DNA of 10,943 nt from a virus (taxonomy: Duplodnaviria > Heunggongvirae > Uroviricota > Caudoviricetes). Below, in pieces: positions 1 through 5,530 of the stretch. The position numbers were made by a program, and so were the translations under genes. The notes below the pieces were generated by a model. That model ran no database searches. It was not told the DNA's origin and saw only the letters and a program-made list of their open reading frames with translations. The stretch lies in IMG/VR virus record IMGVR_UViG_2681813225_000022. One strand, written 5' to 3'. Numbering within the stretch: position 1 is the stretch's first letter; the number at the start of each line of letters is the position of its first letter.

Positions 1-344
1 TTCTACTAATTGGATGCACTACCAAAATAAAATACTGCGGTCGGAATACACGCTAATGTCACCATACCACGATGATAAGCATTCATATCACGAATATTAA
101 AAAGCGTTTCATCGAATTTCTTTATTAATTCCCGCGCCTCCGGGAGCAACCTTTTTCCTGCTTTTGTTAACGTAACCTTGCGAGTTGTACGCTCAAATAG
201 TTGAATATGTAAATCTTCCTCCATCTTTTTTATTCTTCGCGTTAATGCAGGTTGCGTAATATTGAGTAATTTAGCGGCATTGTTAAATGAACTGGACTCT
301 GCCAGTATGACAAATGCCTTCATACTTGATAATTCATGCTTCAT
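1..344 (-). CDS. ybhD: LysR-family transcriptional regulator, N-terminal (HTH) part; gene continues beyond window start
   Basis: Minus-strand ORF 6..407. Likely start is the internal Met at 344..342 (MKHELSSMKAFVILAESSSFNNAAKLLNITQPALTRRI..., a typical LysR winged-HTH N-terminus), preceded by GGAG with a 5-nt spacer. Divergent from the downstream + strand operon as expected for a LysR regulator. Symbol from recalled K-12 synteny. Confidence 0.8.
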
Positions 345-388
345 TATTACTCCGGAAAATGGAAGCGACGATTTTGGGTGGCTGGTCG

Positions 389-401
389 TTAAAAATTTTA
401 A
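389..401. promoter_or_regulatory. Candidate LysR-type T-N11-A box (palindrome TTAAAA-A-TTTTAA) in the ybhD/ybhH divergent region
   Basis: Near-perfect 13-bp dyad ttaaaaattttaa fitting the generic T-N11-A LysR binding architecture, about 45 bp upstream of the proposed ybhD start and about 130 bp upstream of ybhH. Motif-based only. Confidence 0.3.
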
Positions 402-527
402 CTGCATTTAGCCAACTTAAATTAATGAAAAAATGTTATTAATCGTTGAGCTAAAGTCATTAGAGATGCTTTGTCCTTAATGTAACCATATCGCAATAAG
501 TTATGTTTTTAAATTGAGGGCATTATT

Positions 528-1580
528 ATGAAAAAAATACCCTGCGTGATGATGCGAGGTGGAACCTCGAGGGGCGCGTTCCTGTTAGCGGAACATTTAC
601 CCGAAGATCAAACGCAGCGCGATAAAATATTGATGGCAATTATGGGTTCCGGTAACGATCTGGAAATTGACGGTATTGGCGGCGGTAATCCACTGACCAG
701 TAAAGTTGCTATTATTAGCCGTTCCAGCGATCCGCGTGCTGATGTCGATTATCTGTTTGCGCAGGTAATCGTTCATGAGCAACGTGTCGATACCACGCCT
801 AACTGCGGCAATATGCTGTCTGGTGTTGGGGCATTCGCCATTGAAAATGGTTTGATTGCAGCGACTTCGCCAGTTACTCGCGTACGTATCCGCAACGTCA
901 ATACGGGTACGTTCATCGAAGCTGATGTGCAAACGCCAAATGGTGTTGTCGAGTACGAGGGTAGTGCCAGAATTGACGGCGTACCGGGTACTGCCGCACC
1001 GGTTGCGCTCACTTTCCTGAATGCCGCTGGAACCAAAACCGGAAAAGTTTTCCCGACTGATAATCAGATTGATTATTTTGACGATGTCCCGGTGACCTGT
1101 ATCGATATGGCGATGCCAGTCGTCATTATTCCGGCTGAATATCTGGGAAAAACAGGTTATGAATTACCGGCGGAACTGGATGCCGACAAAGCATTATTAG
1201 CCTGCATTGAATCTATCCGTCTACAAGCGGGTAAAGCAATGGGCTTAGGTGATGTCAGTAATATGGTTATCCCTAAACCTGTGCTTATTTCTCCAGCGCA
1301 GAAAGGCGGGGCAATTAATGTGCGTTATTTTATGCCGCATTCTTGCCATCGCGCGCTGGCGATAACCGGTGCTATTGCTATTTCCAGTAGTTGTACATTG
1401 GAAGGCACCGTCACCCGACAAATCGTCCCTTCTGTAGGATATGGCAATATCAATATTGAACACCCCAGTGGTGCGCTCGACGTTCATTTAAGTAATGAAG
1501 GTCAGGATGCCACGACGTTACGCGCATCTGTTATTCGGACAACCAGAAAAATATTTTCCGGTGAAGTTTATCTTCCCTGA
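528..1580 (+). CDS. ybhH: PrpF/AcnD-accessory family isomerase-like protein (350 aa)
   Basis: Intact ORF with ATG at 528 and a GAGGG Shine-Dalgarno 8 nt upstream. Protein features (MMRGGTSRGAFLL..., GNPLTSKVAII, PNCGNM) are typical of the PrpF / 4-oxalomesaconate tautomerase-like family. Symbol from recalled synteny. Confidence 0.88.
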   Translation: MKKIPCVMMRGGTSRGAFLLAEHLPEDQTQRDKILMAIMGSGNDLEIDGIGGGNPLTSKVAIISRSSDPRADVDYLFAQVIVHEQRVDTTPNCGNMLSGVGAFAIENGLIAATSPVTRVRIRNVNTGTFIEADVQTPNGVVEYEGSARIDGVPGTAAPVALTFLNAAGTKTGKVFPTDNQIDYFDDVPVTCIDMAMPVVIIPAEYLGKTGYELPAELDADKALLACIESIRLQAGKAMGLGDVSNMVIPKPVLISPAQKGGAINVRYFMPHSCHRALAITGAIAISSSCTLEGTVTRQIVPSVGYGNINIEHPSGALDVHLSNEGQDATTLRASVIRTTRKIFSGEVYLP

Positions 1581-1619
1581 AAAAATTCGTTGTCAGGATA
1601 AGGACAATCAATAAAGGAC

Positions 1620-3089: not shown

Positions 3090-3218
3090 ATATACTCGTC
3101 ATACTTCAAGTTGCATGTGCTGCGTTTGCGTTCGCTCACCCCAGTCACTTACTTATGTAAGCTCCTGGGGATTCACTCACTTGTCGCCTTCCTGCAACTC
3201 GAATTATTTAGAGTATAT
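3090..3218. repeat. ERIC / IRU (enterobacterial repetitive intergenic consensus) element
   Basis: Contains atgtaagctcctggggattcac, which I recognise as the ERIC1R primer sequence, and cgctcaccccagtcacttactt, the reverse complement of the ERIC2 primer sequence. Inverted termini atatactc ... gagtatat; about 129 bp, imperfectly palindromic. Confidence 0.8.
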
Positions 3219-3233
3219 CCATTTATTATCTTT

Positions 3234-3255
3234 CTGCGCACTTCACGGTGCGCAG
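3234..3255. promoter_or_regulatory. 8-bp-stem inverted repeat CTGCGCAC-ttcacg-GTGCGCAG immediately upstream of the ybhJ RBS
   Basis: Read directly; lies between the ERIC element and the GGAG (3262–3265) / ATG (3272) of ybhJ. No downstream T-tract, so not a typical intrinsic terminator; more likely an operator or mRNA structure. Confidence 0.35.
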
Positions 3256-3271
3256 ATATCTGGAGCATTCG

Positions 3272-5530
3272 ATGATCAAGTTATCTGAAAAAGGCGTGTT
3301 TCTCGCCAGTAATAACGAAATAATTGCCGAAGAACATTTCACCGGCGAAATTAAAAAGAAGAAGCCAAAAAAGGCACTATTGCCTGGTCTATTCTCTCTT
3401 CTCATAATACGTCCGGAAATATGGATAAACTTAAAATTAAGTTTGATTCATTAGCCTCTCACGATATTACCTTTGTTGGTATTGTACAGACCGCTAAAGC
3501 GTCCGGAATGGAACGTTTCCCGCTGCCGTATGTGCTGACCAACTGCCATAACTCACTCTGCGCCGTCGGCGGCACCATTAACGGTGATGACCATGTTTTT
3601 GGTTTATCGGCAGCGCAGCGTTATGGCGGTATTTTTGTGCCTCCGCATATTGCGGTCATCCATCAATATATGCGTGAGATGATGGCAGGCGGCGGCAAAA
3701 TGATCCTCGGGTCAGACAGCCACACCCGTTACGGTGCATTAGGGACAATGGCAGTCGGTGAGGGTGGCGGTGAGTTGGTAAAACAGCTGCTTAATGACAC
3801 CTGGGATATCGACTATCCGGGCGTGGTTGCGGTGCATCTGACCGGAAAACCTGCGCCGTATGTGGGGCCACAGGATGTGGCGCTGGCTATCATTGGCGCG
3901 GTGTTCAAAAACGGTTACGTCAAAAACAAAGTCATGGAGTTCGTTGGACCGGGCGTTAGCGCGCTCTCTACCGATTTCCGTAACAGCGTTGACGTGATGA
4001 CCACGGAAACCACCTGTTTAAGCTCCGTCTGGCAAACTGATGAAGAAGTGCATAACTGGCTGGCGCTGCACGGTCGCGGCCAGGATTACTGCCAGCTTAA
4101 CCCTCAACCGATGGCGTACTACGATGACTGCATCAGCGTTGATTTAAGCGCCATCAAACCAATGATTGCGCTGCCGTTCCACCCGAGCAACGTGTATGAA
4201 ATCGACACACTGAACCAGAACCTGACCGACATTCTGCGTGAGATTGAAATTGAGTCCGAACGCGTGGCGCACGGTAAAGCCAAACTCTCGCTGCTGGATA
4301 AAGTGGAAAATGGTCGCCTGAAAGTGCAGCAGGGGATTATCGCGGGCTGTTCTGGCGGTAACTACGAAAACGTCATCGCGGCGGCGAATGCACTGCGCGG
4401 TCAATCCTGTGGCAATGACACCTTCTCGCTGGCGGTTTACCCGTCATCACAGCCGGTGTTTATGGATTTAGCCAAAAAAGGTGTGGTAGCAGATTTGATT
4501 GGCGCAGGCGCAATCATCAGAACCGCGTTCTGCGGCCCATGCTTTGGCGCGGGCGATACGCCAATCAACAACGGATTAAGTATTCGCCACACCACGCGTA
4601 ACTTCCCGAACCGCGAAGGCTCTAAGCCAGCTAATGGGCAGATGTCAGCGGTGGCGTTGATGGACGCTCGTTCTATCGCTGCGACTGCGGCAAACGGTGG
4701 CTATTTAACCTCTGCCAGCGAACTTGATTGCTGGGACAACGTGCCGGAGTACGCCTTCGATGTAACGCCGTATAAAAACCGTGTTTATCAGGGCTTTGTG
4801 AAAGGGGCAACTCAGCAACCGCTGATTTACGGACCGAACATTAAAGACTGGCCGGAATTGGGTGCGCTGACTGACAATATCGTCCTGAAAGTGTGCTCGA
4901 AGATCCTCGACGAAGTGACCACCACCGACGAACTGATTCCTTCCGGTGAAACCTTCTTATCGTTCAAATCCGATTGGTCTGGCGGAGTTTACCCTGTCAC
5001 GCCGCGATCCCGGTTATGTTGGCAGAAGTAAAGCGACTGCTGAGCTGGAAAATCAGCGTCTGGCGGGGAATGTCAGCGAGCTGACAGAGGTGTTTGCGCG
5101 CATTAAGCAGATTGCTGGTCAGGAGCATATTGATCCGCTGCAAACTGAAATTGGCAGCATGGTATATGCGGTGAAACCAGGCGATGGTTCTGCGCGCGAA
5201 CAGGCGGCGAGCTGCCAGCGTGTGATTGGCGGTCTGGCGAATATTGCCGAAGAGTACGCGACTAAACGCTACCGTTCTAACGTCATCAACTGGGGGATGT
5301 TACCGCTGCAGATGGCGGAAGTGCCAACCTTTGAAGTGGGGGATTACATTTACATCCCTGGCATTAAAGCGGCGCTGGATAATCCGGGTACGACGTTTAA
5401 AGGTTATGTGATCCATGAAGATGCGCCGGTAACGGAAATTACGCTCTATATGGAAAGTCTGACTGCTGAAGAGCGCGAGATTATCAAGGCGGGTAGTTTG
5501 ATTAACTTCAATAAAAACCGTCAGATGTAA
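3272..5530 (+). pseudogene. ybhJ: Aconitase-family hydratase, disrupted by two frameshifts in this sequence
   Basis: One protein is spread over three overlapping ORFs in alternating frames (3248..3454, 3421..5031, 4946..5530). Continuity is restored by a shift inside the A-run at about 3353–3360 (...FTGEIKK then [17 protein letters not shown]...) and a second shift at about 4951–4957 (...DELIPSGET then [12 protein letters not shown]...). ATG at 3272 with GGAG 6 nt upstream. Fragments carry aconitase-like motifs ([15 protein letters not shown]). Confidence 0.78.

Follow-up and report, generated by a model that had tools for sequence, protein, structure and literature searches.

The ybhD/ybhH–ybhI–ybhJ locus of Escherichia coli as a proposed uptake-and-conversion cassette for an aconitate-type tricarboxylate, decayed in a Shiga toxin-producing lineage

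Which acid is handled by the products of the E. coli genes ybhH, ybhI and ybhJ, and in what state are these genes in the stretch of DNA considered here? The stretch, hereafter the window, comprises the 10,943 nucleotides of the virus record IMGVR_UViG_2681813225_000022, and the whole of it was identified as E. coli chromosome, with a 100 % match to five complete genomes (2014C-3011, SMN013SH2, SMN152SH1, SMN197SH3 and OkiPb01679). The SMN strains are bovine isolates of Shiga toxin-producing E. coli (STEC) O177:H- (fliC H25) (PMC5814490). In RefSeq, the identical record and K-12 have the gene order pgl, ybhD (minus strand), ybhH, ybhI and ybhJ (plus strand) and ybhC (minus strand), and in the STEC strain a lambdoid prophage lies beyond ybhC. 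An initial annotation had read the locus as a LysR regulator gene with genes for a PrpF-family isomerase, a DASS transporter and an aconitase-family hydratase, as part of a pathway for an aconitate-like tricarboxylate. This gene content agrees with both the Pfam domains and the RefSeq names ybhD, ybhH, ybhI and ybhJ, and the domain searches (Pfam and NCBIfam) did not contradict any of the family assignments. The cluster is already known from E. coli, where no function has been assigned to it, and does not represent a novel type of system. On balance we lean towards reading it as a cassette under LysR control that takes up and converts an unsaturated, aconitate-like tricarboxylate, probably of plant origin, and that has decayed in this lineage.

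The following features of the module were found in the window (where no strand is given, none was assigned).

1..23: right end of the IS1 copy that interrupts ybhD; the RefSeq IS1 transposase lies just before it, and other E. coli match only from base 24
24..31: 8 bp IS1 target-site duplication, AAAATAAA; the identical eight bases occur at the other IS1 end (locus L001, 2250-2257)
24..344, minus strand: 5' fragment of ybhD, codons 1-107, helix-turn-helix (HTH) and linker (Pfam HTH_1; RefSeq pseudogene piece)
345..527: divergent ybhD/ybhH control region, with blocks conserved in Escherichia, Citrobacter and Edwardsiella
421..443: candidate LysR-type T-N11-A box, ATTAAT-N11-ATTAAT; its sole occurrence in the window, with 0.04 chance matches expected
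528..1580, plus strand: ybhH, intact, 350 aa (PF04303, E 1e-166, profile positions 1-371 of 371)
1656..3089, plus strand: ybhI, intact, 477 aa (PF00939 Na_sulph_symp/DASS, E 7e-195)
3272..5530, plus strand: ybhJ pseudogene for an aconitase-family hydratase, 753 aa when intact (K-12 alignment; 'frameshifted' in RefSeq)
3421..5031, plus strand: residual open reading frame (ORF) with aconitase domains 1-3, native residues 51-560 and a 24-aa out-of-frame tail (PF00330, E 1e-87)
4946..5530, plus strand: residual ORF with the aconitase swivel (C-terminal) domain (PF00694 Aconitase_C, E 4.5e-7)

The surroundings of YbhJ homologues in other bacteria bear most directly on the substrate. The YbhJ family is found mainly in gut Clostridia: a scan with the YbhJ alignment, using one genome per species, returned 80 loci, 76 of them in gut Clostridia and mostly in Lachnospiraceae. 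The clostridial homologues are 68–74 % identical to E. coli YbhJ and belong to the same NCBIfam equivalog, NF008503 (PRK11413), with scores of 1406 and 1531 bits. In a neighbour-joining tree, the enterobacterial YbhJ sequences form one clade beside a far more diverse Firmicutes radiation. Neighbouring ORFs were clustered, representatives were scanned against Pfam and NCBIfam, and genes at a distance of at most 7 kb from the hydratase were counted. At least one citrate-handling enzyme was encoded at 29 of the 76 loci; citrate synthase was present at 14/76, an isocitrate dehydrogenase (IDH)-like gene at 12/76 and the citrate lyase genes citDEF at 12/76, and a LysR gene was present at 27/76 and a PrpF gene at 4/76. 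Among the immediate neighbours, citrate synthase was the commonest enzyme gene, yet a divergent LysR gene was more frequent (19 versus 14 loci).

Two arrangements are of particular relevance. The order hydratase, citrate synthase, IDH at two loci (L050 and L055) gives the YbhJ family the place of aconitase in the oxidative branch of the tricarboxylic acid (TCA) cycle. At L040 of Lacrimispora xylanisolvens, a LysR gene on the minus strand faces genes for a CitMHS transporter, a PrpF protein, a YbhJ homologue and citD-citE-citF-citG-citC, and this locus corresponds to the E. coli module plus citrate lyase. An uncharacterized DUF6282 protein was also seen to recur near the YbhJ homologue in Lachnospiraceae, adjoining genes for a LysR protein and for a carboxylate transporter of the CitMHS or 2HCT family (L030, L037, L045 and L050); it is a candidate partner enzyme.

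Intact YbhJ looks in most respects like an active enzyme of the aconitase type. Its best PDB match is mitochondrial aconitase (E 8e-35), and the cluster cysteines C360, C421 and C424 correspond to C358, C421 and C424 of the pig mitochondrial enzyme and do not vary among 20 sequences from two phyla (Enterobacterales and Firmicutes). Also invariant in the YbhJ family are H93, H131, D149-S150-H151, E246, R443, R448, S641 and R643. R565, which lies in a 15-residue motif, is likewise invariant across the 20 sequences, and from the motif spacing we propose it as the counterpart of R580, the arginine that binds the gamma-carboxylate in aconitase. Neither phmmer nor the family profile (HMMER) aligned the stretch around R580 of the mitochondrial enzyme to YbhJ. 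An AlphaFold2 model of YbhJ, built from a 9-sequence alignment, had a mean predicted local distance difference test score (pLDDT) of 38 and was unusable. Among the models compared, YbhJ passes only NF008503 'hydratase'. Deletion of ybhJ has been reported to lower NADPH and H2O2 resistance, as does deletion of icd (PMC4054840), and this phenotype would fit a contribution of YbhJ to isocitrate supply.

YbhH differs at two residues from PDB entry 6OTV ('putative isomerase YbhH'), for which no associated paper was found in the literature searched. The next best structure is LigU (E 1e-92; PDB 6P3H/J/K), and PrpF (2PVZ, 5K87; E 1e-46) and 3-methylitaconate isomerase (3G7K) are further significant structural relatives. 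K59 (in TSKVA) and C93 (in NCGN) of YbhH align with LigU chain positions 66 and 100, the catalytic pair K66/C100 of that enzyme. The NCBIfam model NF033377 OMA_tautomer was passed by YbhH with 511.5 bits (cut-off 440), and the prpF equivalog TIGR02334 was not reached (186 bits; cut-off 440.55).

For YbhI, the model TIGR00785 gave 554 bits against a cut-off of 199, and over its full length (~480 aa) the protein is 33 % identical to CitT and 34 % to TtdT. Since YbhI is a paralogue of these citrate:succinate and tartrate:succinate antiporters, import may proceed against succinate. A match within ybhI at 2121-2369 on the minus strand to the Rfam family Ysr283, a Yersinia antisense small RNA (37.5 bits, E 7e-8), falls below the gathering score of 58 and was set aside as probable coding similarity to a Yersinia ybhI homologue.

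Regulation by YbhD, as claimed in the initial annotation, is published for K-12, where deletion of ybhD strongly raises ybhH expression and a YbhD site has been mapped by ChIP-exo (chromatin immunoprecipitation followed by exonuclease digestion); YbhD represses the ybhH operon (PMC9068703). The claim does not carry over as it stands to the window, in which IS1 interrupts ybhD and ybhJ has frameshifts. Intact K-12 ybhD encodes 317 aa and was found by domain search to be a normal LysR-type transcriptional regulator (LTTR). In the window, the ORF at 6-407 on the minus strand carries a LysR HTH_1 domain (Pfam, E 7e-22), and the full LTTR layout is lost: the HTH (residues 1-107) is kept and the LysR_substrate domain is separated from it by IS1. 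The ATTAAT-N11-ATTAAT dyad in the control region fits the LysR T-N11-A rule and is proposed as the YbhD box; it is kept as ATTAAT-N11-AnnAAT in Citrobacter sedlakii and Edwardsiella tarda. A Nac-like ATA-N9-TAT pattern was rejected as being at chance level (2 matches versus 2.65 expected), and a sigma-70 promoter and terminator scan of the window gave counts no higher than those in shuffled sequences.

Conservation of the module was assessed in complete E. coli genomes (n=5426), from which all counts of lesions and presence given here are drawn. The ybhH–ybhI segment was present at 80 % coverage or more in 5328 genomes and internal ybhJ segments in about 5370, so that the module occurs in about 98–99 % of the set. 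The ratio of non-synonymous to synonymous substitution rates (dN/dS) was 0.014–0.073 for ybhH, ybhI and ybhJ in comparisons of K-12 with Escherichia whittamii or C. sedlakii, and such low values indicate that all three genes encode constrained proteins. The unit of LysR, PrpF, DASS and hydratase genes was also found at differing chromosomal sites in Klebsiella aerogenes, E. tarda, C. sedlakii and Klebsiella grimontii; because it occurs at unrelated positions as a set of four, it behaves as a functional cassette. In K. aerogenes, genes for citrate fermentation (citAB, oadGAB, citS and citC) are found at a distance of about 2 kb from the module. In that species (L003 4865-22286) a second DASS gene was observed between ybhI and ybhJ. 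The E. tarda ybhI homologue (L005 8483-9915) is split into ORFs at 8483-9175 and 9133-9915, apparently by a frameshift at a G-run; the same break is present in a second strain (L006), and ybhH and ybhJ are intact.

In the lineage of the window, ybhD and ybhJ have both been disrupted. The IS1 junction in ybhD occurs in 5/5426 genomes. Relative to K-12, ybhJ carries a 1 bp deletion in the A-run at 3353-3357 and a 2 bp deletion near 4943/4944, present in 7/5320 and 5/5371 genomes, respectively. Translation from the native ybhJ ATG (3272) yields 27 native residues and ends at a stop at codon 61, and the domains PF00330 and PF00694, which lie on one polypeptide in K-12, are found in the window on two out-of-phase ORFs. 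The ybhD and ybhJ lesions recur in assemblies from different laboratories and are therefore not sequencing errors. The decay is recent. Once both deletions are mended, 24 synonymous and 3 non-synonymous changes separate ybhJ from its K-12 counterpart. Two genomes, NZ_AP027479.1 (LR-17-1) and NZ_LR536431.1, carry the 1 bp A-run deletion without the IS1 junction or the 2 bp deletion; in them it could be either an earlier step of the same lineage or recurrent homopolymer slippage. A functional 'split aconitase' made from the two residual ORFs is unlikely, because the GTG at 4946 has no Shine-Dalgarno sequence upstream and, in the large ORF, the first 50 residues, with the invariant H45 and N46 among them, are missing and the last 24 are junk.

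Two in-frame deletion alleles of YbhJ were also seen among E. coli proteins, of 634 aa (P0037/P0044) and 648 aa (P0029/P0030). One joins residues 1-420 to 537-753, with loss of C421 and C424, and the other joins 1-482 to 582-753, with loss of the 15-residue motif containing R565. Frequent degradation of ybhJ in E. coli was considered and rejected: the segments deleted in these alleles are present in 5368-5371/5426 genomes, and since they are nearly always present, the two alleles are rare.

Taken together, these features would be consistent with the following pathway in an intact strain such as K-12. YbhD, acting at the divergent promoter and probably at the ATTAAT-N11-ATTAAT box, would keep ybhH and ybhI off until its effector is present; the repression is taken from the literature, and the site and the effector are what we infer. 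YbhI would then import the acid, possibly in exchange for succinate, and the Lys/Cys pair of YbhH would shift an allylic proton, for example converting trans-aconitate to cis-aconitate. YbhJ, as a [4Fe-4S] aconitase-type hydratase, would hydrate the product to citrate or isocitrate, which would enter the TCA cycle aerobically or pass to citrate lyase in anaerobic fermentation. In the decayed copy, IS1 removes the effector and oligomerization domain of YbhD and the two deletions split ybhJ into three frame pieces, leaving ybhH and ybhI as the sole intact genes of the STEC copy, probably derepressed. If the YbhD stump does not bind, constitutive expression of ybhH and ybhI is expected, with ybhJ dead. 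AcnA and AcnB can take cis-aconitate, so the loss of ybhJ need not abolish the pathway for an aconitate substrate.

The aconitate-like substrate proposed at the outset is supported by the position of the YbhJ family beside citrate enzymes, by the L. xylanisolvens locus and by the layout of the tarR/tarAB system described below. Several points weigh against it. YbhH is nearer to the 4-oxalomesaconate (OMA) isomerases LigU and GalD than to proven aconitate isomerases. The pairing of hydratase and PrpF is confined to 4/76 of the Firmicutes loci. YbhJ lies below the named aconitate-hydratase cut-offs (NF005558, 340 versus 612 bits; TIGR01342, 285 versus 719) and scores 116 bits against TIGR01340, with a cut-off of 825; Cys92 and His64 replace Asp100 and Gln72 of mitochondrial aconitase. 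The truncated YbhD, which retains HTH and linker, could still bind DNA, making derepression uncertain. The sole published phenotype of a ybhD deletion concerns L-malate, and neither a biochemical assay of YbhH, YbhI or YbhJ nor a substrate assignment for them was found in the literature searched, in agreement with the initial annotation that the substrate is not firmly established. In addition, Blank, Green and Guest reportedly found in 2002 that inactivation of ybhJ left the residual aconitase of an acnAB mutant unchanged; repression by YbhD could explain that result. One paper, moreover, terms YbhJ 'catalytically inactive' (PMC4054840).

Four other explanations were weighed against these data. 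The substrate could be 4-oxalomesaconate or a related oxo-tricarboxylate released by other gut microbes from gallate, tannin or lignin, with YbhH as the OMA isomerase/tautomerase, as LigU and GalD are, and YbhJ hydrating 2-keto-4-carboxy-3-hexenedioate (KCH) to 4-carboxy-4-hydroxy-2-oxoadipate in place of the unrelated LigJ/GalB. This would account for the YbhH score above the OMA_tautomer cut-off and for LigU, with both catalytic residues aligned, being its best characterized structural relative; OMA is also, chemically, an aconitate in which the carboxymethyl group is exchanged for an oxalyl group. It leaves unexplained the absence of a dioxygenase, a LigJ/GalB-type hydratase and a LigK/GalC-type aldolase at the E. 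coli, Klebsiella, Edwardsiella and Citrobacter loci examined, the Firmicutes neighbours of the YbhJ family are citrate rather than aromatic-pathway enzymes, and we know of no aconitase-family KCH hydratase. We consider it unlikely, and the least unlikely of the four. A module for exchange and metabolism of a C4-dicarboxylate (L-malate) or 2-oxoglutarate is more doubtful. It is suggested by the sole functional study, in which the ybhD deletion does show a growth phenotype on glycerol plus L-malate and YbhD is labelled 'L-malate utilization related' by the authors (PMC9068703), DASS relatives carry dicarboxylates and YbhI is homologous to the plastid 2-oxoglutarate/malate translocator, but malate calls for no allylic isomerase of the PrpF type and for no hydratase of the aconitase type, the malate effect may simply come from broad specificity of derepressed YbhI, and the gene neighbourhoods elsewhere indicate citrate and aconitate.

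We give somewhat less credence again to the action of YbhH and YbhJ on a methyl-branched or dicarboxylic analogue, such as 2-methylaconitate, itaconate, citraconate or methylitaconate. There are precedents in AcnD/PrpF of the 2-methylcitrate cycle and in Mii with dimethylmaleate hydratase in Eubacterium barkeri, the pairing of AcnD with PrpF is documented (PMC5690661), PrpF and 3-methylitaconate isomerase are structural relatives of YbhH, and YbhJ homologues are listed in some databases as '2,3-dimethylmalate dehydratase large subunit'. Nevertheless, YbhJ scores 63 bits against the AcnD model, for which the cut-off is 1420, YbhH falls as far short of the PrpF model as noted above, the module lies outside the prp operon and has its own importer, and the invariant R565 together with the citrate-enzyme neighbourhoods favours a tricarboxylate. 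Least probable, in our estimate, is that YbhJ, although an aconitase paralogue, has no catalytic activity and serves instead as, say, a sensor or an RNA-binding moonlighting protein, in a cluster without a catabolic role in E. coli whose decay in this strain is inconsequential. The 'catalytically inactive' label, the residual aconitase reportedly left unchanged and the substitutions at D100 and Q72 would fit such a protein; against it stand the invariance of the three Fe-S cysteines and most catalytic residues across two phyla, a dN/dS of 0.02-0.07, the 70 %-identical homologues that fill the aconitase position in citrate synthase–IDH clusters, and repression by YbhD, which could account for the missing activity in laboratory cultures.

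Within the preferred reading, that of a cassette for an aconitate-type acid, a more specific version can be put forward tentatively, and we regard it as possible rather than likely. YbhJ would be a third E. coli aconitase, silenced by YbhD, and together with YbhH and YbhI as an aconitate:succinate antiporter it would serve enterobacteria in the fermentation of plant trans-aconitate via citrate lyase in the anaerobic gut; O177:H- STEC of cattle would have recently lost the hydratase and the regulator and kept a derepressed importer and isomerase. The genes ybhD, ybhH, ybhI and ybhJ are nearly universal in the species, strongly constrained and among the remaining unassigned genes of K-12. If correct, the proposal would provide E. 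coli with a third aconitase and with a route for an abundant acid of forage plants, and would extend the trans-aconitate assimilation systems, described only recently, to a new transporter family. The STEC copy is a recent triple-hit pseudogene cluster, and its lesions, found in 5–7 of about 5,400 genomes, could mark the lineage.

The gaps between the three genes contain the following repeated elements, to none of which a strand was assigned.

1620..1640: perfect 10+1+10 palindrome, TTCTGTATGA-G-TCATACAGAA, in the ybhH–ybhI gap
about 3090..3220: enterobacterial repetitive intergenic consensus (ERIC) element, or intergenic repeat unit (IRU), in the ybhI–ybhJ gap (classical primer sequences exact)
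3233..3256: GC-rich perfect 9-6-9 palindrome or hairpin just 5' of the ybhJ ribosome-binding site

A strong palindrome plus an ERIC element had initially been described for each gap. Both palindromes are real and are perfect inverted repeats, and the ERIC element holds for the ybhI–ybhJ gap, where both classical primer sequences are exact at the centre of the element (3155-3176 on the plus strand and 3133-3154 on the minus strand), but the 75 nt ybhH–ybhI gap has none. It agrees with the definition of ERIC elements as imperfect palindromes of roughly 127 bp that share a conserved core and are scattered over transcribed intergenic regions: E. coli genomes have it at a median of 11 places, and it folds into a hairpin of -40 kcal/mol (z = -5.4). 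An Rfam V_AS5 match on it was below the gathering score and was treated as repeat similarity. Two tight perfect inverted repeats were observed against 0.13 expected, a number reached in 1 % of 300 dinucleotide shuffles, and the RNA hairpin at 3233-3256 has -17 kcal/mol (z = -6.8). It is not a canonical terminator, since a U-run is missing after the hairpin, and a terminator scan of the plus strand classed neither palindrome as one. For the first palindrome, a LexA box (CTGT-N8-ACAG) and a CRP site were ruled out by inspection from the spacings of N9 and N5, respectively.

Conservation of the two palindromes is limited to Escherichia: both recur in E. whittamii, the second with one loop substitution, and Citrobacter, Klebsiella and Edwardsiella either lack them or have other sequence in their place. 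At the ybhH–ybhI site of C. sedlakii lies another palindrome (AGACAGCTGTCT), and the ybhI–ybhJ gap of this species is 26 nt long and lacks ERIC. A block GTTGT(N2-4)GATAAGGA directly after the ybhH stop (1581-1619) was seen to be conserved in Escherichia, Citrobacter and Edwardsiella, and the palindrome downstream of it is not conserved in the homologous gaps (L008, L009 and L005). The palindromes, with ERIC, may form hairpins in the mRNA and so influence its processing or the proportion of ybhI to ybhJ; in Yersinia, ERIC copies are known to change the stability of the flanking mRNA.

Beyond ybhJ, three palindromic units of the repetitive extragenic palindromic (REP)/bacterial interspersed mosaic element (BIME) type lie at 5533-5761, between ybhJ and the convergent ybhC. 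The Rfam family naRNA4 (RF02564) matches at 5625-5695 with 63.2 bits (gathering score 59.5), and weaker REP/BIME copies lie at 5539-5602 and 5717-5761. The prophage occupies 7182-10943, on the lambda attB side of ybhC, and comprises a tyrosine integrase (7182-8252, minus strand), a frameshifted excisionase, an LprI-family protein, an Ea22-like protein and transposase fragments. At least 80 % of the whole window was covered in only 90/5426 genomes.

Several characterized systems resemble parts of the module. LigU and GalD, of the protocatechuate 4,5-cleavage and gallate pathways, include the closest characterized relative of YbhH, with the Lys/Cys pair aligned; ybhH, in contrast, stands without other aromatic-pathway genes, and its partner is of aconitase type, not of LigJ/GalB type. 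Shewanella oneidensis AcnD and PrpF of the 2-methylcitrate cycle likewise pair an aconitase-family dehydratase with a PrpF-family isomerase (PMC5690661). AcnD is AcnA-like, whereas YbhJ is similar to mitochondrial aconitase and below the AcnD cut-off, and the ybh module has an importer and a dedicated LysR gene and no prp context. In E. coli itself, ttdR/ttdA-ttdB-ttdT, for L-tartrate fermentation, shares a divergent LysR gene, an Fe-S hydro-lyase and a DASS antiporter. Both ttd and the citrate-fermentation genes citCDEFXG-citT differ in using other enzyme families (class I fumarase-like TtdAB and citrate lyase, respectively), and the ybh module adds an isomerase; CitT and TtdT antiport with succinate, which for YbhI is suggested by paralogy.

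The clostridial NF008503 hydratases have the same invariant active-site residues as YbhJ and are, to our knowledge, biochemically uncharacterized; their loci differ in mostly lacking PrpF and in having CitMHS or 2HCT rather than DASS transporters. The closest characterized analogue of the module is a proven trans-aconitate system, tarR/tarA-tarB of Bacillus velezensis, where TarR senses trans-aconitate and switches on the aconitate isomerase TarA and the importer TarB (PMC11495376). Here too a LysR gene is divergent from an operon led by a gene for a PrpF-superfamily isomerase and followed by one for an importer, the likeness between YbhH and TarA being one of family and gene layout. Both shared promoters carry AT-rich 6 bp palindromic boxes, TTATAA in tar and ATTAAT in ybh. 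The importer is of the major facilitator superfamily (MFS) in tar (TarB) and of the DASS family in ybh (YbhI), TarR is an activator and YbhD is repressor-like, and tar has no dedicated aconitase, whereas the ybh module has its own hydratase.

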